The position numbers and the translations under genes are program-made. Below are positions 8,855 through 45,569 of a stretch of DNA of 45,569 nucleotides, piece after piece. The notes under the pieces were generated by a model. It saw only the letters and a program-made list of their open reading frames with translations. It was not told where the DNA came from and searched no databases. The stretch spans positions 1 through 45,569 of the IMG/VR virus record IMGVR_UViG_3300027640_000003; one strand, written 5' to 3'. Numbering within the stretch: the stretch's first letter is position 1; every line of letters starts with the position of its first letter. Origin of the DNA: a virus. Its lineage: Duplodnaviria > Caudoviricetes.

Positions 8855-8943
8855 TTTTTGATCCTCATGGTTTCGATGACTGTTTTCGTTCGAACGGGCG
8901 GCCTGGAGTTGACCTGGCCGCAATGGCTATGCAAATCGGCCAG

Positions 8944-9087
8944 GTCAGGCCGTCATTTCGTTCCCGCTCGCACCCGCTTCGTAGGCCGTCTCTTCAGCTG
9001 ACGTCCAAGCCGGCACGAACCTGGCCGTGTTGGTCCGCCGCGAACCGCGGACGATGATCCGGTCGTACTGTCAGGCCGTCATTTCGT
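8944..9087. repeat. 18-bp direct repeat (8944-8961 and 9070-9087)
   Basis: GTCAGGCCGTCATTTCGT twice; this is the 3' end (EMTA-stop) of the protease/scaffold gene. Confidence 0.85.
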
Positions 9088-9568: not shown

Positions 9569-10552
9569 GCTGTACGTTCTCCTACGTTTACGGGTTTGAT
9601 TTGACAGGTCGGCGAGCGTCTTATCGAACGATTGCACGTCGTCGACCAGGCCTTTTCCGATCGCTTCTGCCGCCGGATGGACCCGGCCGTCAGCAATGTC
9701 AACAACCTTTTCTAGCGAAAGGTTCCGACCCTTCGCCACACCGTCCAGGAACTGATCATTCAACGAATCAACGATTCGCTGGATATTTGCAATCTGCTCC
9801 TCGGTGATCTCCGTACCGGGTACCCCAGCCCCTTTGTGATCGCCCGCCTTGATGACGTGGACCTTGATGCCGAGCTGCTCCGCCGCCTTGCTGTAGTCAT
9901 GCAAAACCGCATAGGTCCCAATCGATCCAATCAAAGCGGTCGGATTGTTCGCGTAGACCTTGCTCGCTTGGCTGGCCACCCAATACGCCGCGCTCGCCGT
10001 CAGGTCATCCACAAACGCGTGGACTGGCTTCTTGGTCACGGCCTTTGCGACTTCACCCGCCAGGTCCATCGTGCCAGCGACTGTTCCCCCGGGCGAATCA
10101 AGCACCAGTAGGATTGCACCCACCTGGTCATCATCCACGGCCTGGCGAAGCTGCCGACGAGCAAACACTGTCGACGCGCCGTCGCTCATGCTCGACACGT
10201 ACTTCATCATCGGGCCGCGAAGCCGAATCAACGCCACGCCCTCGCCGGCGATTGTGTACAACCGACTGTCACCGGCGGAGGCCTCGACGCCGTCCTTGAG
10301 GTTACCGCCCAATCCGCCGACGCGCGACGGACTGAAGTTTGCCGCAAACGGATCCGGAACCAAGTGGTTGATGTTCCCGCGATTGGCCTCGATGTGCGCA
10401 ACCAGGTTGATGCCCTGGTACCGCTCGACTGCCTGGCGGAATCGGGTTTCCTCGATCGCCCAAATCCCAAAGAAATCATCGATCACCGCGGATGGAACGT
10501 CCGGCAGGTCAGTCAGGTGATGCGGTGTCGTGAACTTACTTTTTTTCGTCAC
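9071..10552 (-). CDS. S49 (SppA-like) prohead protease with C-terminal scaffold, lambda gpC-like
   Basis: Motifs DSPGG, ASAAYWVAS, IGSIG and AGDHKGAG; coiled-coil C-terminus. Confidence 0.92.
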   Translation of the reverse strand: MTKKSKFTTPHHLTDLPDVPSAVIDDFFGIWAIEETRFRQAVERYQGINLVAHIEANRGNINHLVPDPFAANFSPSRVGGLGGNLKDGVEASAGDSRLYTIAGEGVALIRLRGPMMKYVSSMSDGASTVFARRQLRQAVDDDQVGAILLVLDSPGGTVAGTMDLAGEVAKAVTKKPVHAFVDDLTASAAYWVASQASKVYANNPTALIGSIGTYAVLHDYSKAAEQLGIKVHVIKAGDHKGAGVPGTEITEEQIANIQRIVDSLNDQFLDGVAKGRNLSLEKVVDIADGRVHPAAEAIGKGLVDDVQSFDKTLADLSNQTRKRRRTYSMTTNENSATLQELKQAMPDAGADFLLAQLEKGASVDQALRDHNAKIQADNEALKKQLAEAEVKHKQELEDAKQQLKVIGVEPLGAEKSHQAGSEDGYVGATGDPVADFDAAVRNEMQLHPQFGRQRCVMGVARRNPALHQAYLLATNPSRKAGRLLQEKYDEMTA

Positions 10553-12662: not shown

Positions 12663-13136
12663 TTATTTTTTTCCCGCGAGCTCGATCGCGTTCGATACGT
12701 ACTCGAGCAGCCGACAAATCGCTTCCTCTTTCGACTCAATCGGAACCTTCTTCGTCTCGCCGTTTGCGGATAGGAAGTAGCGTTCGCTGGCGTCCAAGCA
12801 CTCGCCGCGCTCGAGCATGCCAAGCCGAATCATGGCGAGCGCCTGGCCTTGGCTGGCGGTCAATCGCCGTTGGCGCATCTCGCGCGGCCAGCCGCGACGC
12901 GAGATCTGGTAGGCTTCGCCATCGTCCAGCAGCTCACCGATCGGAATCCGGACCACCACACACCGCCCCTTCGGCTTCTTCTGCTCCGGTTCCCGGCTCT
13001 CATCGGGTGGTGATGGAGGTGGTGATGGAGTGAGTCCCACCGCCGATCCGCGTTCTTCCAGGGTTGGTGGTTCCGTCCGTGGTTTCTTCGGTTTTGTCTT
13101 CGCTGGTACTGCTTGTGCTTTTTGCTGTTCGTCCAC
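12663..13136 (-). CDS. Hypothetical protein (Pro/Lys-rich N-terminus)
   Basis: 157 aa, start overlaps the terL stop. Confidence 0.6.
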   Translation of the reverse strand: MDEQQKAQAVPAKTKPKKPRTEPPTLEERGSAVGLTPSPPPSPPDESREPEQKKPKGRCVVVRIPIGELLDDGEAYQISRRGWPREMRQRRLTASQGQALAMIRLGMLERGECLDASERYFLSANGETKKVPIESKEEAICRLLEYVSNAIELAGKK

Positions 13137-18030: not shown

Positions 18031-18257
18031 TACACCCATTACACCCTTTACACCCTTTACACCCATGACTCACTCACCCTCCACGTACGCGTGCGCGTAC
18101 GCGCGTACGCGTGCGAGCAGACGCGCCTTTTTATGTACTTCCTTTCCTTTTTTGTTTACCTAGTGAAGTAAGGGTGTAAAGGGTGTAAAGGGTGAAATCC
18201 TTTTGACTGAAACAACTTGCGACTCAGAACATTACACCCTTTACACCCTTTACACCC
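18031..18257. repeat. Iteron array, probable replication origin
   Basis: 9-bp-periodic TACACCC(TT) at 18031, 18040, 18049, 18058; inverted GGGTGTAAA at 18172 and 18181 (partial at 18190); TACACCC at 18233, 18242, 18251. T-rich tract at 18128-18158; located at the 3' end of the primase gene. Confidence 0.75.
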
Positions 18258-20779
18258 TTTTCTTGCGACGTTTCGTAGGACGATCGTGCATCACCTTGCG
18301 CGTCGCCGGCCATGTCGACATACTCACCGCCTTGGTAGTAATAGGACCGAACACCGCTGACCATGTGATTGACCTTCGTCAAAAAGGGTGTAAATCGGTG
18401 TAGCTCGCGACCGAACCCGCGACTCGACAGTGGTCGAAAACCGTTGTCAGAACACCACCGCTTGTACCGATCGAACAGCTCTGCGACCTGAATAAACCCG
18501 GTTTTTTCTTCCTGAATATGTTCGCGAATAAATTGCAGGGCGGGATTATTTTCTAGCCGATAGTCGTCGATGGCTTTTTCTGACTGCTTAGAATTGGAAA
18601 ATCTTCCTTGTTCGCGAAGTCGCGCGAGCCCTTGAATGGCCCACAACAGAATCCCTGGGAGCTCTCCAGACTGCTCCCACCACCAACACTTGTCCATGTT
18701 CGGAATTCGCTTCTGCTCCGGCACCTGGATCGTCAGGGGAACCAGAATCATGCGGCGCCAGATCCCGTCTGACTTGTCGCTGAACCGCGGCCGGTTGTTG
18801 CAGCCGATCATCAACCTGGCCGTCGGGTAGGCCTCGATGGCATCAATGCCCTTCCGGTCGAACATCATCCGCTCACCGGCCGTGAAGGACTTCAGATTGC
18901 CTTCTGATTGCTTCTCGATCTCGCCGGCGTCTGGGGCGATGTTGGCGAGCTTCCCGAGGGTTTGTGTCTTGGAGAATCGATCACCGAAGACTTCCAGGGG
19001 AACGTGGGCCACGTTATCGACCCCGAGCATGGCCTCGAGCGCCGCGAAGTAGACCGATTTTCCGTTAGCGCCCTCGCCCTCGAGGACCAAAAAACGTTGC
19101 TGGCCAGTATCTGGGAGCAGGCAGTACCCCGCCCACTCCTGGAGGATGGCTATCCGCTCCGGATCCCCTTCCAGGTTGTATTGCAGGAAGGCGTTCCACT
19201 TGGGGCATTTCGCAAGCGGATCGAAGCGATAGGGGAGACGGATTGTCGAGAACCAGGCCGGCGAATGCGGAATCATCACGTCGTCCGAATCGGCCAGAAG
19301 GGAATCGACGTCGAGAATCCCGTTCTCCATGGCAACGTAGTTGCGCCGCTCTCGGATTCCGGCCTGGTCATCCAGCCACGTGCCCAGCTCGATATGGGAG
19401 GGAACGACGGTCATTCCCTTGGTTGCGTCCAGGACGTTGGAAACGATCGTCTTGGTCACCTTGCGCGCCGTTTTGACGTCCTTCTTTGAATTCGCCTGTT
19501 CGTCGATGTTCAGGCGGTCGAATTCTGTCTTGATCGCCATATTGAGCTTTGCGATCAGCTCACCCTTGGGGATCTTCCTGTACCGGTTACCCTTCCAGAT
19601 GTACCACTCGTCCCGCCAGAACTTAATCGTCGCTCCATTATTGGCGGCCGCATATCGAGCTAGATTCATGCGGGCGAGCTTGTGAGGATCATCGTCGGCC
19701 TCGATCGCCGTCGCGTTTGAACCGGCTTCCTGGCTGACGACAACCGGCTCCACCTGGTCAGCCAGCTGCTCAAGGTCCTCAAACGTGTGTCCCTCGTTGA
19801 GCCAGTCCCTAACGTCCTTTCCATGGTCCGGGACAATTGGGTAGGGAAGCAGGACATTGCGTGATTCTTCGGCCGTCGATGCCAAACACGGCGCCCATCC
19901 AGGACGCTGGCGGCCGTCCTCCTCGCCAACGAACATGGCTCCGTCCTGCCCTGGGCGATCGGCGTCGTGGATCACTCGGGCGTGCTTTCCGGTTGCCAGA
20001 TCGACAATCCACTTCTTCGGCCGCTCCTTGGCGCCGTTGCTGTTGGTCACCGCAACATGGCCGTCCGGCAGGATGCCATGGACTGCCAGTGCATCGGTCG
20101 GCCCCTCGAGCTTCCAGAGCGTCTCTGCCGCTGCGATCTGCTCGATGGGCCCGACCAGCCCGGATTCCGAGCCGAATGTCACTTTGACCTTGACCCACTC
20201 AACCTTTTTTCCCTTGTCCGCATACTTCGGCAGCGTGCGGCCGTTGAGTGGGTACAGGATCCAGCCGACTGGATCCGCCTGATTGAGCAACTCGGCCCAG
20301 ATTGGGATGGCGATCACCTGCCATTGATCGCGGTAGGTCGCGAGTCGCCCCCCGAATTGCCTCACGGCCTCCGGAATGATCGGTGGCTTGTTCATGCACC
20401 ACAGGGCAATCAGAGCCTCATTCCATTCGTGAAACTTCAGGTGTTCGGCAGGATCCGTCTTTTTCTTTTTCCCACGCCCATCTTTCTCCGGTTTGATTCC
20501 GAGGTATTCGGCGACTCGCTTCAGCACCTGGCCGAAGTCCTCGCCGGTCATCCACTGGAGGACTGCGAATCCGTCGCCGTTCTTCGCGGTGAAGCACTGG
20601 TTACAAATCGCGCCGCCGGATCCATCATCGAACGCGCGGAAGCGATCGGTGCCACCACACTTCGGGCAGGGATGGTGCTTACCGTCCACGATTGCTGGAT
20701 CAACTCCGGCCAGCGTGGCGATGATCTCGCGCCACCTGGTTGCCGCGGCGTCGCGAACTGTCTGGATGTCGTATCCCAT
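18224..20779 (-). CDS. P4-family primase-helicase (Zn-binding domain, TOPRIM, D5-like SF3 helicase)
   Basis: HHPCPKCGGTDRF...CNQC, LEGPTD, HDADRPG, GKDVRDW, Walker A GEGANGKS and DGIWRR. Confidence 0.93.
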   Translation of the reverse strand: MGYDIQTVRDAAATRWREIIATLAGVDPAIVDGKHHPCPKCGGTDRFRAFDDGSGGAICNQCFTAKNGDGFAVLQWMTGEDFGQVLKRVAEYLGIKPEKDGRGKKKKTDPAEHLKFHEWNEALIALWCMNKPPIIPEAVRQFGGRLATYRDQWQVIAIPIWAELLNQADPVGWILYPLNGRTLPKYADKGKKVEWVKVKVTFGSESGLVGPIEQIAAAETLWKLEGPTDALAVHGILPDGHVAVTNSNGAKERPKKWIVDLATGKHARVIHDADRPGQDGAMFVGEEDGRQRPGWAPCLASTAEESRNVLLPYPIVPDHGKDVRDWLNEGHTFEDLEQLADQVEPVVVSQEAGSNATAIEADDDPHKLARMNLARYAAANNGATIKFWRDEWYIWKGNRYRKIPKGELIAKLNMAIKTEFDRLNIDEQANSKKDVKTARKVTKTIVSNVLDATKGMTVVPSHIELGTWLDDQAGIRERRNYVAMENGILDVDSLLADSDDVMIPHSPAWFSTIRLPYRFDPLAKCPKWNAFLQYNLEGDPERIAILQEWAGYCLLPDTGQQRFLVLEGEGANGKSVYFAALEAMLGVDNVAHVPLEVFGDRFSKTQTLGKLANIAPDAGEIEKQSEGNLKSFTAGERMMFDRKGIDAIEAYPTARLMIGCNNRPRFSDKSDGIWRRMILVPLTIQVPEQKRIPNMDKCWWWEQSGELPGILLWAIQGLARLREQGRFSNSKQSEKAIDDYRLENNPALQFIREHIQEEKTGFIQVAELFDRYKRWCSDNGFRPLSSRGFGRELHRFTPFLTKVNHMVSGVRSYYYQGGEYVDMAGDAQGDARSSYETSQEKGVKGVKGVMF

Positions 20780-23724: not shown

Positions 23725-26067
23725 TCACAGTTCAGCCAAAAGTCTGGCCGCTCGTTCGCGGGCGACCTGTTCAACCAAAAACGTTTTCCGTTCGTCCAAT
23801 TGCTGCCGCCGGCACGATTGGTACGCAACGTCCAGCTCACCAATCAGGTGACATTCGGTCCGTGCTCGTGAGATCGCTGTGTAAATCCATTCCCGGCTCA
23901 TGACCATCCGCGCGCCCGGGTATTTGTCGAGCACGACCGCCACGATCGGCCACTCCGATCCCTGCGACTTGTGGACGCTCAGCGCATAGCCCAAGTCCCA
24001 AGTGCAGCCAGTCGCCGGCGTCGATCCATCCCCATCCTTCTCGCCGGCGTCCTGGCTGCTGCTACGCGGTATCCGAATGATTCTGTCCGGGCTGGTGAGC
24101 TTGGCAGTTGTGTACGATGGACTGGCGTCGACCACTTCGGCGAGCTCGCCGTTGGCGACGTAGACGTCGCCCCGATCGTTCTGCTGGAGGTCCTCGTCAT
24201 CGTCGCCGAGCTCGACGGCCGGGAAAAACCCGTTGGCCGTGTTGACGATCTTGTCGCCCACCCGGAACGGTGAACCAGCAACGCCAGGTCGATGATTCAG
24301 GTTTTCCTGGAGTACCTTATTCAACGCACGTCTGGACACGGGCGATTTCGCGTTGACCGGCACGACGATCTGCGCGTCCCAAATAGGATTGAGCCCCAGT
24401 TTCCTCGCGTGAATGCACACCTCGAGGCATTGGCGAATCTGCAACTCCGGGCTACCACCTTCGCGGTGCACCAGGTTCCCGGCGCACTGGAACCGCTTCC
24501 CGGCCCGGATGTCCGCACACGCCTGGACGATGCCGCCATCGTTCCGCTTGATCTCGCTGAGCTCGCCATACGGCAGGCCGGCACGGATCAAGTCTCGGAG
24601 CGGTGCACCGTGGCCAACCGGCGGCAGTTGGCACACGTCGCCCACGAAAAGGATGTGGGTCCCCTGACCTCGAGCCGCCAGGAGCGATGACATCAGGTCG
24701 GTGTCGATCATGGACGACTCGTCCACGACCAGGTACCGGCATTTCAGCGGGTTGGCTTGGTTGTGCCGGAACGACCATCCGTTCTCGGAGGTCTCGACTC
24801 CCAGCGTGGAATGGATGGTTCTGGCTCGCTTGTTGATTTCATATCCGGCCATCGCCTCGCTGATCCGGACCGCCGCCTTGCCGGTCGGCGCCGCGATCGC
24901 GACCAGGTCGGTGTCGGCATCCTGGCAGATCGATTTGATCAGGGCCGCGGCGGTGAATGTCTTCCCGCAGCCAGGCCCACCACCGAACACCGCAATTGAC
25001 CCACGCAGTGCATGACCCAGCCGCTCCCGCTGGTGGTCGGAGATCTCGGCCAGGCTGTCGACGTCCGGCCAGGTGACCGGTTCCTCCTCAGCGTCTACGA
25101 CCTGGCGAGCGACGAACCGCTCATTCCGCGCGGCCTTCGCTTCAGCCAGAAACACACGATCGCCGTTCTCAACGATTCGCCCACTGCGGTCTGTGCTAAT
25201 TTGTTCGAGCATGCCGGCCCGAATTGCCAAGCGGACCGCGTCAGCATTTCGGACCACGCAAGTCCGGCCGATCATCGATTCTTGAATCCCCTGGTACGCG
25301 ACCGGGCGAGGGTACCAGGTGTGACCAATCGTGTCCGAGGCGATCGCGTACCAGGCACAGAGTGCCTGCCGCTTGAGTCGGTCCGGCGGGAGACCAAGCT
25401 CCAGGTACATCTTGTCGGTACCCTTGAAACCGCAGCCGCGAAACCGCATCAATGCATAAGGATTGCGTTCGATGATGTCCGCTGCCTGGTTCCCCCACAG
25501 TGCCATCGCCCGCCGGGCCGTCGACTTCGGGAAGCCACGTCGCTCAAGTAATCCCATGAGCTCGATTGAGCAGTGCTCAATCTGTGCTCGATCAGCCAGA
25601 ATGGATGCGACCACCTTGGCCGACTCGAGGGACAAACGCGGGACCGCAGCTGCCACGACCTCGGGCTTCTCGCGCAGCAGTTTGACCGCATCGGAGCCAA
25701 ACCGTTCCCAGATCGCCTTCGCGCTGGCCGGCCCGAGTCCGTTCCCCTTGCCGGCCTCCTTCAGATACGCGATAACGCCGGCACGACTGGCCGGCTCCGC
25801 TTCGACATAGGTGTCGAAGTGGAACTGCTGCTCGGTCTCACCGGTCCGCCGGTTCGTATAGCTCGACCAACGGCCGTAGAATCGATAGGTGCGGTGCAGG
25901 GCCAAGGGGCGAGATTCGTCGTCCGTGCCCTTAACGGCATACATCTTGAGCGGCTTGGGCTGCTGGCCGTCGACGTGCTCCACGTCGCCGATAACCACGT
26001 CTCCGTTGCCGTTGGCGAATCGGAACCGCTCGTTGTAGTACGTGGCCGTGATTTCGACGGTGGCCAT
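23725..26067 (-). CDS. RecD2-like SF1B helicase
   Basis: GGPGCGKT, APTGKAA, VVDESSM, GDVCQLPPV, HKSQGSE and YTAISRA motifs; N-terminal HhH region. Confidence 0.92.
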   Translation of the reverse strand: MATVEITATYYNERFRFANGNGDVVIGDVEHVDGQQPKPLKMYAVKGTDDESRPLALHRTYRFYGRWSSYTNRRTGETEQQFHFDTYVEAEPASRAGVIAYLKEAGKGNGLGPASAKAIWERFGSDAVKLLREKPEVVAAAVPRLSLESAKVVASILADRAQIEHCSIELMGLLERRGFPKSTARRAMALWGNQAADIIERNPYALMRFRGCGFKGTDKMYLELGLPPDRLKRQALCAWYAIASDTIGHTWYPRPVAYQGIQESMIGRTCVVRNADAVRLAIRAGMLEQISTDRSGRIVENGDRVFLAEAKAARNERFVARQVVDAEEEPVTWPDVDSLAEISDHQRERLGHALRGSIAVFGGGPGCGKTFTAAALIKSICQDADTDLVAIAAPTGKAAVRISEAMAGYEINKRARTIHSTLGVETSENGWSFRHNQANPLKCRYLVVDESSMIDTDLMSSLLAARGQGTHILFVGDVCQLPPVGHGAPLRDLIRAGLPYGELSEIKRNDGGIVQACADIRAGKRFQCAGNLVHREGGSPELQIRQCLEVCIHARKLGLNPIWDAQIVVPVNAKSPVSRRALNKVLQENLNHRPGVAGSPFRVGDKIVNTANGFFPAVELGDDDEDLQQNDRGDVYVANGELAEVVDASPSYTTAKLTSPDRIIRIPRSSSQDAGEKDGDGSTPATGCTWDLGYALSVHKSQGSEWPIVAVVLDKYPGARMVMSREWIYTAISRARTECHLIGELDVAYQSCRRQQLDERKTFLVEQVARERAARLLAEL

Positions 26068-26962: not shown

Positions 26963-28153
26963 TCAAAAGGGCCCCTTCTGCAGGGACCTCGCAAAAAAGA
27001 GCTCGAGGTTCTTCGACTTGATCGACTCAAGCAGTGCGGTTCCATCCGCATGTGACAGATCCGCAAACTTGCCCTTGCCATGTGCCTGCAGATGAGCCTT
27101 TACGCGTTTGACGAGCTCGTAGTCACCAGTCATGAGCGTCTTGATCTGGTCGACCATGGCCTCCGTGATGGGCCCCGTCACGTCTGAGGACGTTACATCC
27201 TTCGGCAGGCGGGATTCTCCGGCTGTTTCCTCTGCCGCCGCCGCGACCTTCGCCTCGAGGATTCCGATCAATTCCGCGGTCTGGTCGCTCGAGAGTTGCC
27301 GGAACGATTTCGCACCGCGTTTCTGTAATGCCTTTTTGACCTGGTCTTCGGTCGCGCCCAGCGAATCGAACAATTGCCGGAGTCGGGACCGTTGTTCCGC
27401 TGTCGACCCTCCCACCAGGTCGGCCTCAGCCTCGGGACCCGCCTCCGACTTAACTTCCGCCGACGGTTCATCCTTTTCCGGCGGATCGGGCACAACAACG
27501 AACTCCGCGTCGATCGGCTCCGATTCCGTTTCGTTGACCTGGCGGGCCTGCTCTCCTGCCGCCTTCGCCGCCGTGTCGCGAATCAATTGTTCAACGTCGA
27601 CGGGTTCTTTCGCCTTATCCTCCACCTGGTCGAAATCGACAACTTCCTCAGGTGTGTAAAACCCCGCGACGATTTCGGGCGCGATTGTATGCACTCCCTC
27701 GGAAACGACTCGCGCCCAGAGCATTTGACGGCGAGCCCGTGGAGTCGCCCAGTTGACCTTCAATCCCTTGCCGTCCTTCCGGTGCGGCCATGGCTCTCCC
27801 TTCGCCTCTTCCCAGCTGAGGGACTCGATTAGAACTTCGCCCTCATACTCGATTTGGATTTCCGCGCGTTCCGCAGTCCGTGCGATCACTTTGTGCTTTC
27901 CGCCCCGGTTCCTTAAATTCGCGAGCATCGCATCCGCCCTCATGGACAGATTGCCGTCGAAAATGTGGTACGTCCGCTTGATGGCAATGGGATTCTGCTT
28001 TTCCGCAAGGCACGCCATCGCGAGAACCTGGCCTTGTGCCTCGTTCTCGCAGCCGAACATTCTCGATTTCGCGATCATCGTTCCGAATCGCTCGACGAAT
28101 GCGATCGGATCTTGAACGTTGTCGTACACCGTTAACGCGTTTGCTGTTGTCAT
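26963..28153 (-). CDS. RecT-like single-strand annealing protein
   Basis: YHIFDGNLSMRADAM...RQMLWARVVSEG...APEIVAGFYTPEE pattern, acidic linker, replication-module context. Confidence 0.7.
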   Translation of the reverse strand: MTTANALTVYDNVQDPIAFVERFGTMIAKSRMFGCENEAQGQVLAMACLAEKQNPIAIKRTYHIFDGNLSMRADAMLANLRNRGGKHKVIARTAERAEIQIEYEGEVLIESLSWEEAKGEPWPHRKDGKGLKVNWATPRARRQMLWARVVSEGVHTIAPEIVAGFYTPEEVVDFDQVEDKAKEPVDVEQLIRDTAAKAAGEQARQVNETESEPIDAEFVVVPDPPEKDEPSAEVKSEAGPEAEADLVGGSTAEQRSRLRQLFDSLGATEDQVKKALQKRGAKSFRQLSSDQTAELIGILEAKVAAAAEETAGESRLPKDVTSSDVTGPITEAMVDQIKTLMTGDYELVKRVKAHLQAHGKGKFADLSHADGTALLESIKSKNLELFFARSLQKGPF

Positions 28154-28507: not shown

Positions 28508-28696
28508 TTATTCCCTCCCTGCTCTGACGTGCTGGGTCAAAACGGCCGCGTCGTACCAAGTGAGCGACAGCTCTTGGTTAGCGGCCATGCGGCTAATGGC
28601 GCAGATCGTCTGCGAACGATGCTGTTCGTCGTAGAGAAAGACGTATTTCTCGCCGCCCTTGATCAATGCTGTCACGAGCCTGTCACCGTGCATCAT
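28508..28696 (-). CDS. Small protein resembling a conserved planctomycete hypothetical family
   Basis: ALIKGGEKYVFLYDEQ...LSLTWYDAAVLTQ, recognised from memory; ATGA-coupled to csrA. Confidence 0.6.
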   Translation of the reverse strand: MMHGDRLVTALIKGGEKYVFLYDEQHRSQTICAISRMAANQELSLTWYDAAVLTQHVRAGRE

Positions 28697-28866
28697 GCCG
28701 CGCCCTTTTCCCGCTGTTCCCTCTCGATCAGCTCGCCGCGGACCACGTGGACTTCCCGACCGGCTTCGATCCCCACAGACACTCGCCCGCTCGACGCATG
28801 GAGGATGAACACCTTCGCGTCGCCAACCTGAATCCAGTCGCCTTCCTTGCGCCCGAGAACCAACAT
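28693..28866 (-). CDS. csrA: Carbon storage regulator CsrA/RsmA homologue (57 aa, missed by the ORF track)
   Basis: Manual translation: MLVLGRKEGDWIQVGDAKVFILHASSGRVSVGIEAGREVHVVRGELIEREQREKGAA; AAGGA RBS. Confidence 0.88.
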   Translation of the reverse strand: MLVLGRKEGDWIQVGDAKVFILHASSGRVSVGIEAGREVHVVRGELIEREQREKGAA

Positions 28867-29171: not shown

Positions 29172-29369
29172 CTAGCGTTCAGCCGCTGCGGCCTCAGCAC
29201 GCGTGTGGTCGATCCAGTCCAACAGCTCTTCGATCGATGCGAGCTCGGTTCTGTCCGACAGCAACAGCCCCGGGCCGCTGGGTGGAGCGGCGCAGGGCAA
29301 CCATAAATCGGGTTGTCCTGTCACTGGATCGAGGACGACGAGTCCGGTCATGGCTTTGACTCCGTTCAC
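29172..29369 (-). CDS. Hypothetical protein
   Basis: 65-aa ORF directly after the Xis-like gene; start may be the internal ATG. Confidence 0.45.
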   Translation of the reverse strand: MNGVKAMTGLVVLDPVTGQPDLWLPCAAPPSGPGLLLSDRTELASIEELLDWIDHTRAEAAAAER

Positions 29370-29372
29370 GAA

Positions 29373-29606
29373 TCATTTGCTGCCATTCGCGTGGCTCTCG
29401 ATCCACGCGATCAATTCGCTCGTGCGGTAATACATTCGCTGGCTGACGACGATCGGCTTGACCATGCCGCTTTGGCGGGCCTCAGCCAGGGCGATGCGGC
29501 CCAGTCCACAGCGCCGCATACAGCCTTCCTTGGTGAGCAGGCCACCCGGGTACACGTCGCCAATCACGCGGGTCGTCTTTCGGGTCTTTGTTGATTGCTT
29601 AGCCAT
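29373..29606 (-). CDS. Excisionase/AlpA-like winged-HTH protein
   Basis: LLTKEGCMRRCGLGRIAL...RMYYRTSELIAWIES pattern; basic; second gene of the early operon. Confidence 0.7.
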   Translation of the reverse strand: MAKQSTKTRKTTRVIGDVYPGGLLTKEGCMRRCGLGRIALAEARQSGMVKPIVVSQRMYYRTSELIAWIESHANGSK

Positions 29607-29617
29607 GGTGGCACCTA

Positions 29618-29875
29618 TCACAGATCCGCGAACGGATCGTCAGTCTTGATTTCTCGCATCTTTCCAACGGCCAGGATCTTGCCCTCGCGGATACAGGCTG
29701 TTTCAAACTCAGCCTTGTCTTGCCGTTCAGCGAACCGTCGCAGGAATGTCTGGTAGTGGTTCATACAGAGGCCGCGGCGTGTTGCCGCGTCTTCGCATAG
29801 CAGGCACTTCCCGGATCGAACCCGTTCGGTGACATGCCCGACCAACGTCCGTTTGACCCCCAGGTCACTACTCAT
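29618..29875 (-). CDS. Zinc-finger protein A (Cro position)
   Basis: ATG 29875 (GAGG RBS); CLLC-x7-GLCMNHY; paralogue of 30156..30716. Confidence 0.75.
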   Translation of the reverse strand: MSSDLGVKRTLVGHVTERVRSGKCLLCEDAATRRGLCMNHYQTFLRRFAERQDKAEFETACIREGKILAVGKMREIKTDDPFADL

Positions 29876-30022
29876 TGCCAAAAACCTCGAGATTTGTGCA
29901 AAAGACACCAGACGTGCCTCCGATGGAGTGCTCCTGCATTCCGTCTCACGTCCAGCGCAGGATTCCGTTGGGCGGCTGCGTCCTGCTCGCATCCGATGAC
30001 CACCGCCTTAGTACATCGGCCG

Positions 30023-30050
30023 ATTCTACTACGCGTCTACGACGTGTCAA
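30023..30050 (-). promoter_or_regulatory. Leftward sigma70-type promoter of the early lytic operon
   Basis: TTGACA-16-TAGAAT on the minus strand, overlapped by CTACG motifs. Confidence 0.75.
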
Positions 30051-30146
30051 CTACGAATTGCGCATTTGTTTACGTGTTAGAGACGTAGCTACGCCGCAAC
30101 TTATTAGTAGGCCAGTAGTTATTGCGGTGGAAAATTTTTCTCGTAG
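30026..30146. promoter_or_regulatory. Candidate operator array CTAC(G/T) / (C/A)GTAG
   Basis: Motifs at 30026, 30029, 30037, 30051, 30084/30089 (palindrome CGTAGCTACG), 30106, 30114 and 30142. Confidence 0.6.
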
Positions 30147-30149
30147 CCT
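30122..30149 (+). promoter_or_regulatory. Rightward promoter candidate, probably leaderless transcript
   Basis: TTGCGG-16-TAGCCT, ending 6 nt before ATG 30156; no properly spaced RBS. Confidence 0.45.
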
Positions 30150-30155
30150 GAGGGC

Positions 30156-30716
30156 ATGAATGCGAAAGAAATCGCCTATGAACGCGACGCGCGCGGAGTC
30201 TGCATTATTTGCGAGGCGATCGACTCCAATCGTCGTCTCGGCCTATGCGTGAAGCACTACACGCGTTTCAGGACGACGCTGCGAAAAATCCCCGCGGAAA
30301 GCCGCGAGGGGTTTGAGTCGCATCTCGTGGAATTAGGCCTCTTAATGCCCAGGCGACAGGGTCCCCGTGTGGATCCGCGGGAGGACGTGTTCGCCGAAGA
30401 GGCGAAGAAGTACTTCGAGGGAATTCCAATCAAGCCAGTGATTCGCAGGATCAGCGAGGCCGACCCCCAGCAGCTCGCCGAGCACATGGTCAACCACGCA
30501 TCGGAGGAACCGCCGATCGAGAAGGCCCCGAAGAAGGGCAGGGCGGGGGGGAAGAAAAAGGCTCAGCGGCGGAAGCAATCCGAGAAGTTGGCCGAACGTG
30601 CTGATGACGTGGCGTCTGACGATGGAATGCCTAATGCACCCTCGGGCGAGGTTGGTCCCGGCTCGTCACCGGACGAATCGAAGGGTAGGGCGGGGGGGAA
30701 GAAGAGCAGATCGTAA
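30156..30716 (+). CDS. Zinc-finger protein B (CI position), putative repressor
   Basis: CIIC-x9-GLCVKHY; paralogue of protein A with a ~100-aa low-complexity C-terminal extension; first gene of the integrase-strand island. Confidence 0.75.
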   Translation: MNAKEIAYERDARGVCIICEAIDSNRRLGLCVKHYTRFRTTLRKIPAESREGFESHLVELGLLMPRRQGPRVDPREDVFAEEAKKYFEGIPIKPVIRRISEADPQQLAEHMVNHASEEPPIEKAPKKGRAGGKKKAQRRKQSEKLAERADDVASDDGMPNAPSGEVGPGSSPDESKGRAGGKKSRS

Positions 30717-30742
30717 ACGCACCAACAAATCAGGGGAGACAA

Positions 30743-31597
30743 ATGGCCGCGAAAATCCCAAGCAAAGTGCTGGAGAGGTTTGGTTCTTGTATCGCGATGT
30801 TCCAGAAAGTTCTGCAGAACGCCCATGATCGCGATGTGAACGAATCCGACACGGTGACAATCGTTAAGGACATCCTGGCCGGGGTCATGGGGTTCGACAA
30901 GTACGAGGAGATCACGAGCGAATATTCAATCCGCGGCACGTACTGCGACCTGGCCACCAAGCTGGACGGCTCGGTCCGGTACCTCATCGAGGTGAAGGCA
31001 ATTGGGCTAGCCCTGAAGGAGAACCACCTCCGGCAGGTCGTCTCCTACGGTTCCTCCCAGGGTGTCCCTTGGGTGGTTCTGACCAACGGTGTCATCTGGG
31101 AGGTCTACCGGATCAAGTTCGAGCAGCCGGTGTCGCACGAGTTTGTGTTTGGAATCAACTTCCTGGAACTGAACATCAAAAAATCAGAGGATATCGAAAA
31201 GCTGTTTCTGCTTTGCCGTGAGGGTGTCCAGAAGTCTGCCATCGACGACTTCCATGCATTCACCCAGATCGTCAACCGGTTCACCATCGCGGCCATCGTC
31301 ACGTCCGATCCGGTCCTTAGCGTGATCCGCCGCGAGCTACAACGCCTCGAGCCCAATTCACGCGTGACGGCTGAGGACATCAGTGCCATTATGCCGGACG
31401 TGCTGAAACGAGACGTCACCGAAGGGGACGAAGCCTGCGCGGCCCAAAAGCGGGTTCTAAAGGCAACCAGGATCCAGCTGCGAAAGCGAGCCGAGAAGTG
31501 TACGGAATGCTCGGACGACCTGGCATCTGATGACGGAATGCCTGATGCATCGCCGGTTGCCATTGAGGTCGAGCTACTACCGGGCGAGGAAAACTGA
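30743..31597 (+). CDS. Stand-alone HsdR N-terminal-like PD-(D/E)xK nuclease
   Basis: NESDT, YCD, LIEVKA, RQVVSY and VLTNGVIW motifs; no hsdM/hsdS and no helicase domain; GGGGAG RBS. Confidence 0.8.
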   Translation: MAAKIPSKVLERFGSCIAMFQKVLQNAHDRDVNESDTVTIVKDILAGVMGFDKYEEITSEYSIRGTYCDLATKLDGSVRYLIEVKAIGLALKENHLRQVVSYGSSQGVPWVVLTNGVIWEVYRIKFEQPVSHEFVFGINFLELNIKKSEDIEKLFLLCREGVQKSAIDDFHAFTQIVNRFTIAAIVTSDPVLSVIRRELQRLEPNSRVTAEDISAIMPDVLKRDVTEGDEACAAQKRVLKATRIQLRKRAEKCTECSDDLASDDGMPDASPVAIEVELLPGEEN

Positions 31598-31830
31598 AGG
31601 GCAGGGCAGATGGCCGGAAGAAGTAGACGTGTCGTCGCCTGCGGCGCGGAATGCCGGTCGCGTCGGGTGGCGCTGATACCGAGCTGCTGCTCTGCGAAGA
31701 GAACTGAAGGGGCACGTCGGGGGGGGTAGTAAGACGGCAAAAGGAAGGCCGGTCGATAACATTCCTGGGAAATAGATCGCTTGCGGCTTCTACTGATGTG
31801 ATACTATTCTATGGATTCTATATATAACAA

Positions 31831-32672: not shown

Positions 32673-32732
32673 CGCACCCGGCCAGCCGGCCCCGTTAGTG
32701 CCGGCCGCTCACTTTTCCCCAAGGTGAGTGCC

Positions 32733-33221
32733 ATGCGTTCGGATCCGTTAAGAGCAGGGCGAGGACAACTGCTCGAGTTTGAATATCCCGAACGGAATCT
32801 GATTGGCGTACCGACGGTCTGGAAGCGCCGCACGATCCTCGTCGAGTCGATTCACGATATGGCCGTCACTGCGATCGATCCCCGCGCCGTCGAGCTGCGG
32901 CCACTGATTCGACGGGGTCGCCACCTGGTCGTGGGCTACGACCTCGACGCCGGACGCACACGAATGTTCTACCGGGAGGCCATGCGACACGTTCGCAAGT
33001 CGAGCTGGCTGCAGCTGGCCTTGTTCGATCCCTGTGAGGAGAGACGGCGGCTTCACTGGCCACATGGGCCGTTCGCACCAACCGCGCGCGATCGGCTGTT
33101 CCTGGCCGACGTGATACAACACTTCAACCAGATGACTGCCAGGCGTGATGACATCTGGCTGAATCTGGGCGTTTTCCCCTGGGAGGCTGGCGATGAGCAT
33201 CCGCGTTCTCCTACGGCTTAA
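32733..33221 (+). CDS. WYL-like domain protein
   Basis: LEFEY...RRTILVE...HLVVGYDLDAGRTRMFYREAM matches the WYL pattern; no HTH; overlaps the integrase start. Confidence 0.55.
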   Translation: MRSDPLRAGRGQLLEFEYPERNLIGVPTVWKRRTILVESIHDMAVTAIDPRAVELRPLIRRGRHLVVGYDLDAGRTRMFYREAMRHVRKSSWLQLALFDPCEERRRLHWPHGPFAPTARDRLFLADVIQHFNQMTARRDDIWLNLGVFPWEAGDEHPRSPTA

Positions 33222-34341
33222 GCCCGACCGCGACAACTACCAGATGTATTACGTCGATCCGTTGACCGGTCAGGATGTGACCCGGTCGGCCCGCACCACC
33301 AGTGTTCGAGAGGCGGAGCGTGCGGCCGCGAAGTGGGAGGCAGAACTGGAAGAGCAGGGGACCGTGAGCCGGGTCATGGCCTGGGAAGAGTTCCGCATCC
33401 ACTACGAGAGCACACACTTGGCCGGGAAGGCACAGCGGACAAGAGAGTCGGCCGCGTCCGCAATGAACTGGTTGGAAAGGACACTAGGGAATGTGCGGCA
33501 GATCGGCATGATCGATTCGATGACGATTGCCAAGATGGTCGGTCAATGGCGCCGAGACGGGATGAGGGACTCCACGATCGGCGCGCACCTCGGCCACTTG
33601 CGGACGGCGTTCGGCTGGGCGTACAAGATGCAGCTGATTCAGAAGCGGCCCATCTTCCCGGTTCCGAAACTGACGGGCCGCCTGATGAAGGGCAGGCCGA
33701 TCAGCGGGAAGGAATGCCGGAAGCTGTTACGTACGGCCCGGGCAGAGCGACCCAGCGACTGGCGTCAGTGGGTTCGGTTCATCCACGGGCTATGGCTGTC
33801 GGGACTCCGGCTCGAGGAAGCAATCAACCTGTCCTGGGACGAACCACCGCTGCTGGTGGATCTGACCGGTGGCAAGTATCCCCGGTTGGTGATCCGAGCC
33901 CCAGGGCAAAAATCACGACGCGACGAGCTGGTCCCCCTCGCCCCGGACTTCGCGACCTGGTTGCGGAGGACTCCCGCAGCTGAGCGTCACGGGCGAGTGC
34001 TGCCGATCTTCTCGACCTGGGGAAAGGATCGCCCTGTGAACGCTGCAAGCCGCATCGGGCGCGTGTTGTCAGAGATCGGCGCGGCGTCGGAGATCATTGT
34101 GAACGACGAGGGCAAACACGTCAGCGCACACGACCTGCGACGTTCGTTTGGAACACGTTGGGCCGCGCGCGTGAAGCCACTCGCACTGAAGCGCCTCATG
34201 CGCCATGTGGCCATCGAAACCACCCTGCGATATTACGTTGATCAAGACGCAGATGACGTTGCCGAAGAATTATGGGCGGGAGACTTGTACCCCTCCTCGT
34301 ACCCTCGGAACGGCATTCACAACGACATTGATCGCAAATGA
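33193..34341 (+). CDS. int: Tyrosine integrase
   Basis: Catalytic residues in SGLRLEE (R), QKS (K), HDLRR (HxxR), MRH and TTLRYY (Y); GGGAGG RBS. Confidence 0.95.
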   Translation: MSIRVLLRLKPDRDNYQMYYVDPLTGQDVTRSARTTSVREAERAAAKWEAELEEQGTVSRVMAWEEFRIHYESTHLAGKAQRTRESAASAMNWLERTLGNVRQIGMIDSMTIAKMVGQWRRDGMRDSTIGAHLGHLRTAFGWAYKMQLIQKRPIFPVPKLTGRLMKGRPISGKECRKLLRTARAERPSDWRQWVRFIHGLWLSGLRLEEAINLSWDEPPLLVDLTGGKYPRLVIRAPGQKSRRDELVPLAPDFATWLRRTPAAERHGRVLPIFSTWGKDRPVNAASRIGRVLSEIGAASEIIVNDEGKHVSAHDLRRSFGTRWAARVKPLALKRLMRHVAIETTLRYYVDQDADDVAEELWAGDLYPSSYPRNGIHNDIDRK

Positions 34342-37193: not shown

Positions 37194-39436
37194 CGCCGGA
37201 CCCTCGCTTTCGAGCGGCTGAACATTTTCGGGCTTGGCGGGGCGAGCGTCATCGGATCCAGCTCGCCGGCCCCGGTGGTAAATTGCAGCATCGGCGCCCC
37301 TCGCTGATTCTCCTCCAGCAACGGCCACGCAATCCGTAGCTCACTCACCACGGTGTTGATCGTCTCGTAGCCGTAGATTGGATTGCCGAGTGTGGTGATC
37401 AGATAGCCTGGCTGAATGGCCGACGTGAGCTGCGACGTCGCCATCGTCAATACAATGCGATCCTGAGACCACCACGCGTGCGTGATGCGAGCCAGCGCCC
37501 GCAACAGGTCGGTATCGTCCCGCGCGTAGCCTCCGTTGCTGGTGATCAACGTGCCATCGGCCGCGACGTCCAGCACGGTCGTGGGCACCACATAGTCCTG
37601 CCGAAACGAATCGCCCGCAAATACCACGAAGCCGAACTTGGCGTCGATCAGGCTCGAATCGCCCCAGCTGGAGTCCTCCGGATACTTGCCCTCGGCATAA
37701 CGGTTGTCGCGCAGCGTGGCGGTAATCAACATCTTCTTCGACTTATAGTCGAAATCGCCGAGGTCGCGATCGACGCCTGCCAGTTTCGTGAAGTCCGTAG
37801 CGGCGATTACATGTTGCTGCTCGCCCGACACGCACACTTCGAGCGTACGAGTGTCCGGCTGCGTGCGAATCGAGGCAGACCAGCGGAAGTTCTTGCCGTC
37901 GCCGGCCGCGTCGCCGGTCGCTTCCGCCAAGGTAGCCACGGCGTTACCCGGTACCCATCGGCTGTCCGTCGGGATCTTAAACACCACCAGCGGCTGGCGG
38001 TAGACAGAGACGGGCGGATCAGCCACCGTCCCGTCCTCGATCTTCGAACCGCTGTAATCGGTGTGCTCGTAGAGCGGCAGATACGATTCAAAAACTACGT
38101 CGTGGATGTACTGCCGGACAGGGTAATAGGGAGTCTCGCCGGGGAACACGACATGCACCGCGACGTCCTCGGGGGCGGTCGTGGTGCCCGCCCAGGTGTC
38201 TGGCAGCTTGAACCACGAGAACACAGCTGAGAGCGATTCAGCGCTGCGCACCTCGGCGTTGCGTTGTTGCTGCTTGAGCTTGTCCCAGGTGCCGTATCCG
38301 GCCACCCCGCTCGCTGCCGCTTCATAGGCGCTTTGCTCGATCCCCGTCCAGGCGGCGGCGAGATAGGGGGTCGCCACGTGGAATGTCGCCGTGCTCGTCC
38401 TCCTGGCGCCTCGCACGACAACCTGGTCGTACTTGCTCACACGGGACTGTCGCAGGATTGCCGTGGTGCTTTGATTGTCTTCGTAGATGATGCTGATCGG
38501 GCGTTCGTTCGGGAGTAACGCGTCCACCATCTCGATGCCCGTCTCGATCGTCGCACCGTTCCAGGCCACGACACGCAGCTCCACCTCGTTGGGTTCATTC
38601 AGTTCGTCCACTCCCAGGTAGAACCCTCGCAGACGCCTTCGGTCGATCAATCGATTGAGGATCGACAGGACCGTTTGCCCCTCCTGTTCGACCACGGGTT
38701 GGTCAAGTACCGGCAGGAATTTAGCGTCAGCGGTTCTTAACTTGAACGGGACCCGCACCGTGCGGGTCGCGAAGCTCTCCTTGGGGACCGCCCACGACAG
38801 CAGATAATCGACGATGTGGTACGTGCTCCACCACTCGGCCGCCAGGGGATAGCTCGGGTCGTGCGTATCGCGGCCTTCGAAGACGTAGGAGTTGTTGGGA
38901 TCCATCACCAGGTCGCTGCGATTCGCCCGGCCGCCACGATTGAAGACAATCGGCAACTGCACCACGGCCGGCATCGTCTCACCCACGTTCACCCACGATT
39001 CCGACAGGTACTCCGTGTCGAGCAGTTTTTCAAGTCCGTAGCAGTGGAACGTTTGCGTTCCGGTCGCAAGCGGCCCCGCGCCGTATCGAACAACTCCCAC
39101 CGGCTCGTCTTCGACATGGCCGATAATGCCGTACCACGTGTTTGTGTCCCACGTGGCTACGCTGGCCACCCATTCCGTTTGCATCACGACCTTTACGTAC
39201 CAGCCGATCGGATTCACCTTGGGCCACGCGGCGTAGTGGGCAGATCCAGGCTGTTTGATGTAGCCGTAATCCCGCCTGAGTGCGGCCGTGGGCATCGTGG
39301 GAGAGAGACACCACGTTGCTTCGGTGCAGTGGATTTCCGCGTACAGCGTCCAGTCGTTCTGCCACTTCTGCTTGAGATAGACGAACTGTTTGCCGGTCGC
39401 GCGCAGCTGCTTGGTGCCGAAATTGACGATCGTCAT
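37190..39436 (-). CDS. Large tail tip / baseplate hub protein
   Basis: 748 aa, beta-rich, downstream of the tape measure gene; function by synteny. Confidence 0.6.
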   Translation of the reverse strand: MTIVNFGTKQLRATGKQFVYLKQKWQNDWTLYAEIHCTEATWCLSPTMPTAALRRDYGYIKQPGSAHYAAWPKVNPIGWYVKVVMQTEWVASVATWDTNTWYGIIGHVEDEPVGVVRYGAGPLATGTQTFHCYGLEKLLDTEYLSESWVNVGETMPAVVQLPIVFNRGGRANRSDLVMDPNNSYVFEGRDTHDPSYPLAAEWWSTYHIVDYLLSWAVPKESFATRTVRVPFKLRTADAKFLPVLDQPVVEQEGQTVLSILNRLIDRRRLRGFYLGVDELNEPNEVELRVVAWNGATIETGIEMVDALLPNERPISIIYEDNQSTTAILRQSRVSKYDQVVVRGARRTSTATFHVATPYLAAAWTGIEQSAYEAAASGVAGYGTWDKLKQQQRNAEVRSAESLSAVFSWFKLPDTWAGTTTAPEDVAVHVVFPGETPYYPVRQYIHDVVFESYLPLYEHTDYSGSKIEDGTVADPPVSVYRQPLVVFKIPTDSRWVPGNAVATLAEATGDAAGDGKNFRWSASIRTQPDTRTLEVCVSGEQQHVIAATDFTKLAGVDRDLGDFDYKSKKMLITATLRDNRYAEGKYPEDSSWGDSSLIDAKFGFVVFAGDSFRQDYVVPTTVLDVAADGTLITSNGGYARDDTDLLRALARITHAWWSQDRIVLTMATSQLTSAIQPGYLITTLGNPIYGYETINTVVSELRIAWPLLEENQRGAPMLQFTTGAGELDPMTLAPPSPKMFSRSKARVRR

Positions 39437-39849
39437 GGCTTCTCGACGCCGGAATTATTGATGAGAAGTTGCAGGTTGTCCGTTGCACTGGCCACACCCA
39501 GGACCGAGCAGAACGAGGAGCTCGCCAGGTCGGCAGCCGGGCATATCTTCCCGGCATTGACGGACAGGATGTAAATACCCGCCACGGTGAGCGCTGCCCC
39601 CACGTCCAGGTCGCCAAGGGTGCAGATCGAACACGGCTGGCCCGCCGCAGCTCCATTGAGTGCGATGCCCTTGACGGTGGCCTCCAGCAAGGTCCCGCCG
39701 GCGTGAGCCAGTTTCAGGACGTTATCGTTGGCGGTATCGACATAGACGGCATCTCCCGCCGCGATCGCGACCCCGGCGACATACTCAGATTTCGCGAAGG
39801 AACCCGCCACGCCCAGCACATTGGCCGCAGTAATTGCAAGATCAGCCAT
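39433..39849 (-). CDS. Virion structural protein with a capsid-cement-like fold
   Basis: AGVAIAAGDAVY...GIALNGAAAGQ resembles 8480..8854. Confidence 0.6.
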   Translation of the reverse strand: MADLAITAANVLGVAGSFAKSEYVAGVAIAAGDAVYVDTANDNVLKLAHAGGTLLEATVKGIALNGAAAGQPCSICTLGDLDVGAALTVAGIYILSVNAGKICPAADLASSSFCSVLGVASATDNLQLLINNSGVEKP

Positions 39850-44620: not shown

Positions 44621-45569
44621 TCACCCCCGTTGTCCATAGAGGACTTCCAGCCAGGCGTACAGGTAATCGCCTTGACCTGGTTCGTCACGTGCGTTGGATC
44701 GTCGATACCCACGGAATGCGACCGTGTCGGCCGCCAAGTAGGAATATCCACCGGCCTCGTTGGTTCGGCCGGCCAGGTCCGCCAGGCCGAAGAAGGTGGA
44801 AGAGGATTCGTCGGCTGGCCGTTTCTGGATCCTGCCAATGGTCTGCTTCACGAGTTGATCGAGCAAAACCGGTGAATTCTTCAGAGTCTCGGGAGTATCA
44901 ATCTCGAAAACGATCCGCAGTGATCCGCGATCCGCCCAGGCCCCTGGCAAGCTCGCCTGGCGTGTCGCCATGGCACCGTCGAGGTCGTTGGTGAAGATCA
45001 ACGCAAACGGCCGGTACGCCTGCAATTCGGCCAGAGTGTAGCTTTCCCGTCCGCCGGCGGGTCGTGGAAGGGATTCATGCCAGATCCGGGCCAGTGCCGA
45101 CGCGTGATCCGGCGCCCCGACCAGGTTACGGAACTCGGAACAATCGGCCAAGGTTTTGGCGAGCAGCTGCTGGGGTTCGTAGAGGATCGAGTTCGAAAGG
45201 CTCATCACGCCTGGCCGGACCGCGAACGTGATGGCCGCGTAGTCTGCGGCCATCGAGTCCGTGGCTGTCCAGTTTCCGCCCCCGGATCCGCCGGCCGACG
45301 TGAGTCCCTTCGTCGCAATCGCCATCGATAGCGTGCCGGCGGATCCGTCCCTCGATTCCAATAAGGTCCATCCCGTCGGCTGGACCAACACCCTCGGGGC
45401 CCCGTCGACAGCCAGGACCGCGACGGCCAGGCAATTGTCGACGGCCGTCGTAACACCTGGTTCCGCGATCGGGAGCCCCGCATTCCCGACGGCCGAATCA
45501 ACCGCTTCGATCACCGTGAACGGATCCGCTCCACGGAGGATGAAGAGGTTGTATAGGACCGCATCGGCC
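44621..45569 (-). CDS. 3' part of the junction-spanning protein; C-terminal domain may be the tail terminator
   Basis: Frame is open to the window end and continues into 404..1. Confidence 0.8.
   Translation of the reverse strand, partial: ADAVLYNLFILRGADPFTVIEAVDSAVGNAGLPIAEPGVTTAVDNCLAVAVLAVDGAPRVLVQPTGWTLLESRDGSAGTLSMAIATKGLTSAGGSGGGNWTATDSMAADYAAITFAVRPGVMSLSNSILYEPQQLLAKTLADCSEFRNLVGAPDHASALARIWHESLPRPAGGRESYTLAELQAYRPFALIFTNDLDGAMATRQASLPGAWADRGSLRIVFEIDTPETLKNSPVLLDQLVKQTIGRIQKRPADESSSTFFGLADLAGRTNEAGGYSYLAADTVAFRGYRRSNARDEPGQGDYLYAWLEVLYGQRG
45429..45569. repeat. Terminal direct repeat, right copy
   Basis: Matches 1-141 with one mismatch. Confidence 0.97.

Follow-up and report, generated by a model that had tools for sequence, protein, structure and literature searches.

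Can two back-to-back genes for zinc-ribbon paralogues hold the lysis-lysogeny switch of a temperate phage? The question is raised by the IMG/VR virus record IMGVR_UViG_3300027640_000003, whose full 45,569 bases were analysed and are called the window in the following. At its main divergence point a short gene (A) and a longer gene (B) are transcribed away from each other. To our knowledge, nearly all described bacterial lysis-lysogeny switches depend on helix-turn-helix (HTH) or ribbon-helix-helix repressors, and prophage-prediction and induction models rely on such repressors. We favour, tentatively and at a probability of about 45 %, a reading in which B is the lysogeny-maintenance repressor and A the lytic-side counter-regulator, in the roles of CI and Cro or of P2 C and Cox and with a fold other than HTH. 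The two genes, each supported by an open reading frame (ORF) and its peptide, are located as follows (aa, amino acids):

29618 to 29908 (GTG start, 96 aa) or 29618 to 29875 (ATG start, 85 aa), minus strand: gene A, short CCCH zinc-ribbon protein
30156 to 30716, plus strand: gene B, long paralogue, 186 aa

Judged from their alignments, A and B are true paralogues, well past chance, as the preliminary description of the locus had stated: BLASTP aligned them with 14 identities in 30 positions (47 %, E-value 1e-6), and hhalign joined the A family (23 sequences) to the B family (5 sequences) over 71 columns with a probability of 97.2 % and an E-value of 3e-11. The alignments place the likeness along the full length of A and residues 1 to ~80 of B, beyond the cysteines. 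C24, C27, G35, C37, H40 and G65 (A numbering) were invariant in a joint alignment of 28 sequences, and R18, Y41, R74 and F82 nearly so. Across the A family the predicted zinc ligands C24, C27, C37 and H40 did not vary and were spaced C-x2-C-x9-C-x2-H; the basic residues R33/R34 and R46/R47 after the zinc knuckle are kept in A. Among 48 B-like sequences C19 and C31 were invariant and C16 nearly invariant, with an x11 spacing in B, and the fourth ligand, a histidine in A, was D or C in some B relatives. The C3H label given to the pair earlier thus fits A, a CCCH protein with invariant ligands, and holds for the B family with the restriction of this variable fourth position. The AlphaFold2 (AF2) models of both proteins agree in a helix, the zinc knuckle and two to three subsequent helices, three of them in A (predicted local distance difference test, pLDDT, 82.5). 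For B, the pLDDT was 94-98 in residues 1-60, 81-87 in residues 61-90 and about 55-64 past residue 90. Residues 1-90 constitute the zinc-ribbon/helical domain, which is followed by an acidic linker of low confidence and by the basic tail KKGRAGGKKK.

The gene boundaries had to be refined on both sides. By comparison with relatives, translation of A more likely starts at the GTG at 29908 (96 aa) than at the ATG at 29875 (85 aa). The N-terminal extension gained in this way, MSFAQISRFLAM, matches P0031 (MSFAQLSRFLAM) and many representatives that start with ATG there, and an ORF of the related locus L008 carries an ATG at the position aligned to GTG 29908. In locus L009 the aligned position is without a canonical start, the extension is therefore not universal. 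The 85-aa ORF described earlier was confirmed as ORF and peptide, with the longer form being the likelier one; the 186-aa ORF and peptide of B also stood, with the reservation that the last ~50 aa are an insert absent from relatives. B relatives terminate after KKGRAGxKK at 128-136 aa, and the ~50 extra C-terminal aa of the window B represent a lineage-specific insert at residues ~137-176. The insert is flanked by a 24-nucleotide (nt) direct repeat (30533-30556 and 30680-30703, 96 % identical), and its interior (30564-30645, 82 nt) is 74 % identical to 31475-31556, the 3' terminus of the gene that follows B, from which the insert was copied. The repeat, the G-rich element GAAGGGCAGGGCGGGGGGGAAGAA, is present three times, the last copy lying just past the next gene (31596-31619). 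To judge by their arrangement, the 24-nt repeats and the copied segment look like the scar or the site of a cargo-cassette exchange downstream of B.

A word-indexed search returned 25 relatives of A (50-98 aa) and three of B. The combined A and B profile, run against 1.84 billion cluster representatives, matched 949 at an E-value of at most 1e-3, 310 at 1e-10 or below and two at 1e-30 or below; the matches form two length classes, one of about 85-105 aa and one of about 120-180 aa. None of 30 scanned family representatives was above the cut-off of a Pfam family, A and B themselves had no Pfam family match, NCBIfam gave only rows with E-values of at least 0.0065, to an archaeal topoisomerase zinc finger, and a tblastn search of 50,697 GenBank phage records with A and B found no match. 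A matched PHROG 5351 'HNH endonuclease' with an E-value of 0.009. No score in the ESM Atlas reached 0.9; its rows count only as leads.

Every gene from 29908 down to position 1 lies on the minus strand and those between 30156 and 34341 are on the plus strand, thus the A/B site is the single divergence point adjoining the integrase island. The early, lytic-side operon, with genes for xis, recombination and replication, begins with A. Strands and gene matches agree with the initial assignment of A to the head of the xis/replication operon and of B to the head of the integrase-strand island. Such a promoter-proximal position on both sides is usually that of autoregulated switch genes. The divergent A and B pair was present in seven of seven loci with sufficient flank around a full-length A-like gene; the recurrence of homologues as divergent pairs, proposed as a check in the preliminary description, was borne out for these loci. 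The seven loci comprise the window, a 30.7-kb IMG/VR contig (L004), two metagenome contigs (L008, L009) and three IMG/VR contigs found by motif pattern (L044, L061, L066). The B-like ORF of L009 has a length of 62 aa only. A partial pair was seen in L099, and the flank of L101 was too short to judge. One A relative (P0006) and one B relative (P0029) may come from one contig, since the longest contig given for each measures 2,786 bases. The gene order kept is int, a conserved 136-165-aa protein, optional cargo and B on one side of the divergence point, A and an Xis-like gene on the other. The B operon of L044 and L061 consists of B, a 145-aa protein, int and nothing more, and in this minimal form B is the sole candidate with a nucleic-acid-type motif.

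The intergenic region and the leader of A carry the following elements, to which a regulatory gene of the A operon is added:

30023 to 30050, minus strand: promoter P_A, TTGACA (30050-30045), 16 nt, TAGAAT (30028-30023), 11/12 consensus
29917 to 29921, minus strand: Shine-Dalgarno sequence (SD) GGAGG, 8 nt ahead of the A start codon GTG
29905 to 29958, minus strand: 12-bp stem-loop in the A leader (29958-29947 with 29916-29905), RNAalifold, 4 loci
28693 to 28866, minus strand: phage CsrA homologue in the A operon (PF02599, E-value 3.4e-12; 46.6 bits, the cut-off being 27; positions 1-52 of the 53-position profile covered)
30122 to 30149, plus strand: putative weak promoter P_B, TTGCGG, 16 nt, TAGCCT, read by eye; its -10 stops 6 nt short of the ATG of B
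30029-33, 30037-41 and 30051-55, strand not applicable: three CGTAG copies in or abutting P_A, candidate operator half-sites
30084 to 30093, strand not applicable: perfect palindrome CGTAGCTACG
30094 to 30127, strand not applicable: inverted repeat CCGCAA-N22-TTGCGG, the right arm being the putative -35 of P_B

By its hexamers and their preservation, P_A is a strong, conserved sigma-70-type promoter. It was the single promoter match in 29300-30900, where shuffles averaged 0.5, GTTGAC and the -10 were invariant in four aligned loci, and a scan revealed a promoter with 10/12 or 11/12 consensus positions at the corresponding site of L004, L008 and L009. The A genes across the loci bear SDs of the GGAGG or GGGAG type; GGAGGCAC at the SD of A is identical in the window, L004 and L008. 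Up to GTG 29908 the leader of A measures ~107 nt, with 82 % identity between the window and L004. Of the 12 pairs of its stem-loop, three had compensatory changes in the RNAalifold alignment; the loop holds the SD together with three GGA motifs, and the GTG start codon is located in the 3' arm. Folded as a single sequence, the leader was no stabler than shuffles (z 0.98). A function of the hairpin as intrinsic terminator was rejected, the T-run being unconserved and the fold no better than that of shuffles. In the 140-nt A leader GGA occurs seven times versus 3.2 expected (p about 0.016). The CsrA homologue, which also matches phrog_9500 (E-value 2e-7), suggests together with the GGA-rich leader a possible CsrA feedback on the translation of A. 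Both features are present in L004; a csrA gene and a long leader are both missing from L044, L061 and L066.

On the B side, six of seven loci have a TTGC(A/G)(A/G) or GTTACA hexamer and, after 16-20 nt, a -10-like hexamer that stops 4-7 nt short of the start codon of B; these hexamers were read by eye from an ATG-anchored listing. A purine-rich SD was absent upstream of B in five of those six loci. Because the -10 lies within 4-7 nt of the ATG and an SD is usually missing, the mRNA of B, which probably originates from a weak promoter, is probably leaderless. The cI gene of lambda is expressed from P_RM in the same manner, as a leaderless mRNA off a weak promoter. Between the start of B and the -10 of P_A, CGTAG or its complement was counted six times in 136 nt, a number matched by 0.8 % of dinucleotide shuffles. 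The pentamer was rejected as a family-wide operator, being missing in the other loci. A GCAA...TTGC core has the same place relative to the start of B in L004 (GCAACA-N18-TGTTGC), L044 (GCAAGT-N15-ACTTGC) and L061 (GCAAGTCC-N11-GGACTTGC). The core spacing amounts to 22 nt in the window and L004 and to 19 nt in L044 and L061.

The two halves of the locus diverge at unequal rates. Identity between the window and L004 is 74 % for protein A versus 29 % for protein B, between the window and L008 67 % versus 36 %, and between L044 and L061 82 % versus 60 %. In the DNA of the window and L004, the part from the -35 of P_A up to A is 82 % identical and the B-proximal half of the spacer 51 %. B and the adjoining DNA change together, as an immunity determinant would, while A and its control region are fixed. 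Fast divergence is common among immunity repressors. Since A is conserved while B and the flanking DNA diverge, the two proteins probably read different sites. A competition for shared operators, as initially proposed, would not predict this pattern and is not supported by it. A fixed A next to a diverging B with diverging DNA sites also suits a protein-protein surface more than a shared DNA specificity, and A might then be an anti-repressor by mimicry, a tail-less N-domain paralogue that forms non-repressing A-B oligomers and does not compete for operators. A aligns with the entire folded N-domain of B and is devoid of linker and basic tail, as expected of such a mimic. However, mimicry presupposes an oligomerisation of B via the N-domain, and A retains the basic residues after the knuckle, as a nucleic-acid binder would; we consider this explanation quite unlikely.

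A conventional repressor was not detected. The six-frame scan of the record gave no match to HTH_3 (PF01381), HTH_19 (PF12844), HTH_31 (PF13560), HTH_17 or RHH_1 and none to Peptidase_S24 (PF00717), as was anticipated in the statement that Xre-type HTH and S24 repressors are missing; the control genomes in the HTH scans all gave matches. The L004 record was likewise free of HTH_3 matches. In the literature, searched mainly via abstracts, neither a zinc-finger master repressor of a bacterial phage nor a switch of zinc-finger paralogues was found, so that the abstracts are in line with the early impression that a switch of this type had not been described.

Which molecule the two proteins bind was approached via the zinc motif. 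The pattern C-x2-C-x6-RGLC-x2-HY (27-aa zinc motif) was present in 112 IMG/VR stretches, among which 84 loci had an ORF matching the A or the B profile. Six of these were full-length family members, one of them (L064) being the L004 contig; in the remaining 78 loci the match was restricted to profile positions ~30-56. Thirty longer motif-only ORFs were picked for a comparison with Pfam, a choice biased to long proteins. Nineteen of them had a nuclease domain above the cut-off (HNH_3, HNH, Endonuclease_7, GIY-YIG or LAGLIDADG_3), one had a sub-threshold HNH, one a sub-threshold HTH_31, and nine were without match. As far as this sample goes, the zinc motif is a module borne at the ends of phage homing-type nucleases, a setting typical of accessory DNA-binding modules. 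Zinc-ribbon domains flanking phage HNH nickases are described in PMC3592412, as is a lower activity and a loosened site recognition of one such nickase after removal of its N-terminal zinc ribbon. Because the other homes of the motif are DNA nucleases, this setting suggests, by association, a binding of nucleic acids by A and B. Tandem copies of the same motif were observed in otherwise unannotated proteins, ten in P0134 (612 aa) and four in P0108 (249 aa).

The nucleic acid need not be DNA. A and B might be RNA- or RNA-polymerase-binding zinc proteins, comparable to TraR/DksA or Ogr/Delta, which tune host or phage expression after infection. Their fold matches no known DNA-binding domain, and the conserved hairpin, the GGA excess in the A leader and CsrA in the same operon point to post-transcriptional control at the locus. 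Small polymerase-binding zinc proteins of phages (TraR/Orf73) are known, according to PMC9239242. Against this role of the pair stand the nucleases as other homes of the motif and the Pfam comparison, in which neither A (96 aa) nor B matched the zinc fingers of Ogr_Delta or DksA/TraR at an E-value of up to 1. Those C4 fingers also differ in ligand spacing from the C-x2-C-x9-C-x2-H of A. We regard a role of this kind as improbable.

A further explanation comes from the neighbouring genes, which may constitute the switch themselves:

29373 to 29621, minus strand: Xis/AlpA-type winged-HTH gene, second in the A operon, overlapping the stop of A (phrog_4745 'DNA binding protein', E-value 0.003)
30743 to 31597, plus strand: cargo gene, phrog_17239 / HSDR_N_2-like (PD-(D/E)xK nuclease-like; PHROG E-value 1.1e-79, PF13588 E-value 5.2e-6)
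32724 to 33221, plus strand: conserved 136-165-aa protein between B and int, 165 aa in the window, 17 relatives
33193 to 34341, plus strand: tyrosine integrase, closing the B operon (PF00589 E-value 1.1e-7; phrog_1 E-value 3.9e-29)

In this case the Xis/AlpA-type HTH protein, similar to P2 Cox or 186 Apl, and the 136-165-aa protein, a WYL-like and likely sensor or regulator, would take the decision, and A and B would be accessory, e.g., as architectural DNA binders or as cofactors in excision and integration. The Xis-like gene directly follows A in all loci with flank, and its orthologues match HTH_17 (L009, E-value 1.5e-6; L004, E-value 1.9e-4); by these matches it is an Xis-type winged HTH, which by analogy could act like P2 Cox. 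The 136-165-aa protein, found in L004, L044, L061 and L066, invariably lies between B and int and always overlaps the start of int. Its core reads RRGRhLV.G.DL....R.FY, and its profile weakly resembled the WYL region of the PafBC chains 9fnd/7p5x (E-value 0.036); among 15 members compared with Pfam, one had weak matches to WYL_2 (E-value 0.036) and WYL (E-value 0.093). WYL regulators sense single-stranded DNA (ssDNA) after DNA damage, as stated in PMC11662680 and PMC12041258. The WYL-like protein is thus the only hint on induction and a weak lead for a RecA-independent route. On the other hand, WYL had no match in the six frames of the window record, the WYL-like protein stands alone with no HTH or other DNA-binding domain detectable (0 Pfam families at an E-value of up to 1), an Xis-like protein in the early operon cannot alone maintain lysogeny, and it is A and B that hold the promoter-proximal slots on both sides. 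A switch made by the neighbours is, in our view, unlikely. The HSDR_N_2-like gene was found after B in L004, too, and is absent from L044 and L061; in L066 and L008 the cargo site holds a different gene, of 344 aa in L008. The HSDR_N_2-like gene is a possible lysogen-expressed defence cargo.

Several results weigh against B as repressor and A as its counterpart. A and B probably do not share operators in the lambda sense, as read from their unequal conservation. P_B passed a formal promoter scan in only two of seven loci, its assignment was made by eye. The repeat enrichment is restricted to the window, a comparable k-mer excess being missing in L004, L008 and L009, and the GCAA...TTGC arms are perfect in four of seven loci only, with a 6-bp inverted repeat expected by chance about once per region. 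No oligomerisation domain was recognisable in B, the residues past 90 having a pLDDT of about 55-64. Structure and profile searches did not relate the proteins to known regulators: PDB sequence-profile searches gave only rows at E-values of at least 0.27, Foldseek with model A had 0 rows at E-values up to 1e-3 in the PDB, and model B had 0 such rows in BFVD. The VIA-wide structure searches had no significant results, the best being chorismate mutase for model A (Z 3.5) and, for model B, the HNH endonuclease SciA of T5 with DNA (Z 3.6, 51 residues, 24 % identity), a structural row that is suggestive only. The Xis-type HTH after A or the WYL-like protein after B could be the real component of the switch, and the CheckV completeness of the record is 77 %.

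With B as repressor and A as antagonist, the locus would operate in the following way. B would be made together with int from the weak promoter as a leaderless mRNA, would bind DNA via the zinc-ribbon/helical N-domain, aided by the basic tail, around P_A with its CGTAG repeats, and would shut off the early operon there. A, the first early product, would bind at or near the GCAA-N22-TTGC repeat overlapping the -35 of P_B and by this turn the lysogeny operon down. A more elaborate version combines all parts into an HTH-free module: a leaderless B repressor and a stand-alone WYL-like ssDNA sensor, co-transcribed with int, would be opposed by the truncated paralogue A, whose translation would be gated by the start-codon hairpin and the phage CsrA; induction would follow from damage sensed as ssDNA, without RecA-stimulated autocleavage. 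As a whole, we judge this module to be improbable.

The setting of the locus is that of a phage genome. The record is a temperate tailed phage and encodes, besides the genes mentioned, the following proteins:

9071 to 10552: S49 protease
10536 to 12230: lambda-type portal
13136 to 15202: terminase large subunit
18224 to 20779: D5-type primase-helicase
23725 to 26067: RecD-like helicase
26963 to 28153: RecT-like protein

Two far-apart ORFs of the structural region match Phage_cement_2 (8480-8923, minus strand, E-value 4.6e-7; 39433-39849, minus strand, E-value 1.1e-4). The genome had been called apparently complete. This could not be confirmed for a record classed as linear and estimated at the above completeness; its ends carry minus-strand ORFs running off at 1-404 and 44621-45569 in the same frame, which do join into one ORF of 453 aa. 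The joined frame is compatible with a circular or permuted genome, and the record may be complete and circularly permuted in spite of the 77 % estimate; completeness is not thereby proven. The DNA of the record was carried by seven sequencing runs, all DNA, from subsurface or rock-porewater metagenomes; RNA datasets were not listed among these runs. A planctomycete host, as suggested in the preliminary description, found no support from any analysis. A scan of genome contigs gave one 22-residue match to a Fibrobacteraceae metagenome-assembled genome, which was judged spurious.

If A and B form the switch, they would stand for a widespread unannotated regulator family, with the 310 representatives of the stricter profile threshold, no Pfam or NCBIfam model and no member in the GenBank phages. 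The family would flag the immunity region in a group of environmental temperate phages, provide a compact new zinc-based DNA-recognition module and show a repressor and its antagonist that arose naturally by duplication. The sigma-70-like character of the promoters makes reporter assays in Escherichia coli feasible.

Among known systems, the zinc ribbons of phage HNH and homing nucleases share with A and B the same C-x2-C...RGLC-x2-HY motif. In contrast to these enzymes, A and B have no HNH, EndoVII or GIY-YIG domain, are neighboured by Xis-like and cargo genes, and extend the motif into a conserved helical domain of ~70 aa; the similarity outside the motif is insignificant. The regulators of the wHTH-WYL-WCX type (CapW, DriD, PafBC), which respond to DNA damage without RecA according to PMC11662680 and PMC12041258, resemble the protein between B and int in its WYL-like core. 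This protein, unlike them, stands alone without HTH and is far under the family thresholds, the likeness is a lead only. The layout recalls P2 C/Cox and 186 CI/Apl, in which the repressor, like the candidate B, precedes int on the same strand and an excisionase-type HTH protein belongs to the early operon. The likeness is one of layout only, without sequence relation to P2 C or Cox; the Xis-like gene of the window comes second, after A, not first, and by no search did A or B have the fold of P2 C or 186 CI. Lambda CI/Cro has in common with the locus the back-to-back regulators, the short intergenic region, a strong lytic and a weak, in the case of B probably leaderless, lysogeny promoter. The comparison with the lambda cro/cI layout made at the outset holds for the divergent regulators; the sharing of one operon by B and int and the Xis-like HTH among the early genes are nearer to P2 and 186 than to lambda. 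A and B differ from the lambda regulators also in the lack of HTH and S24 domains, a triple operator array was not found, and A and B are mutual paralogues, CI and Cro only very remotely so. Taken together, A and B represent a probable new regulator family within a known switch architecture.

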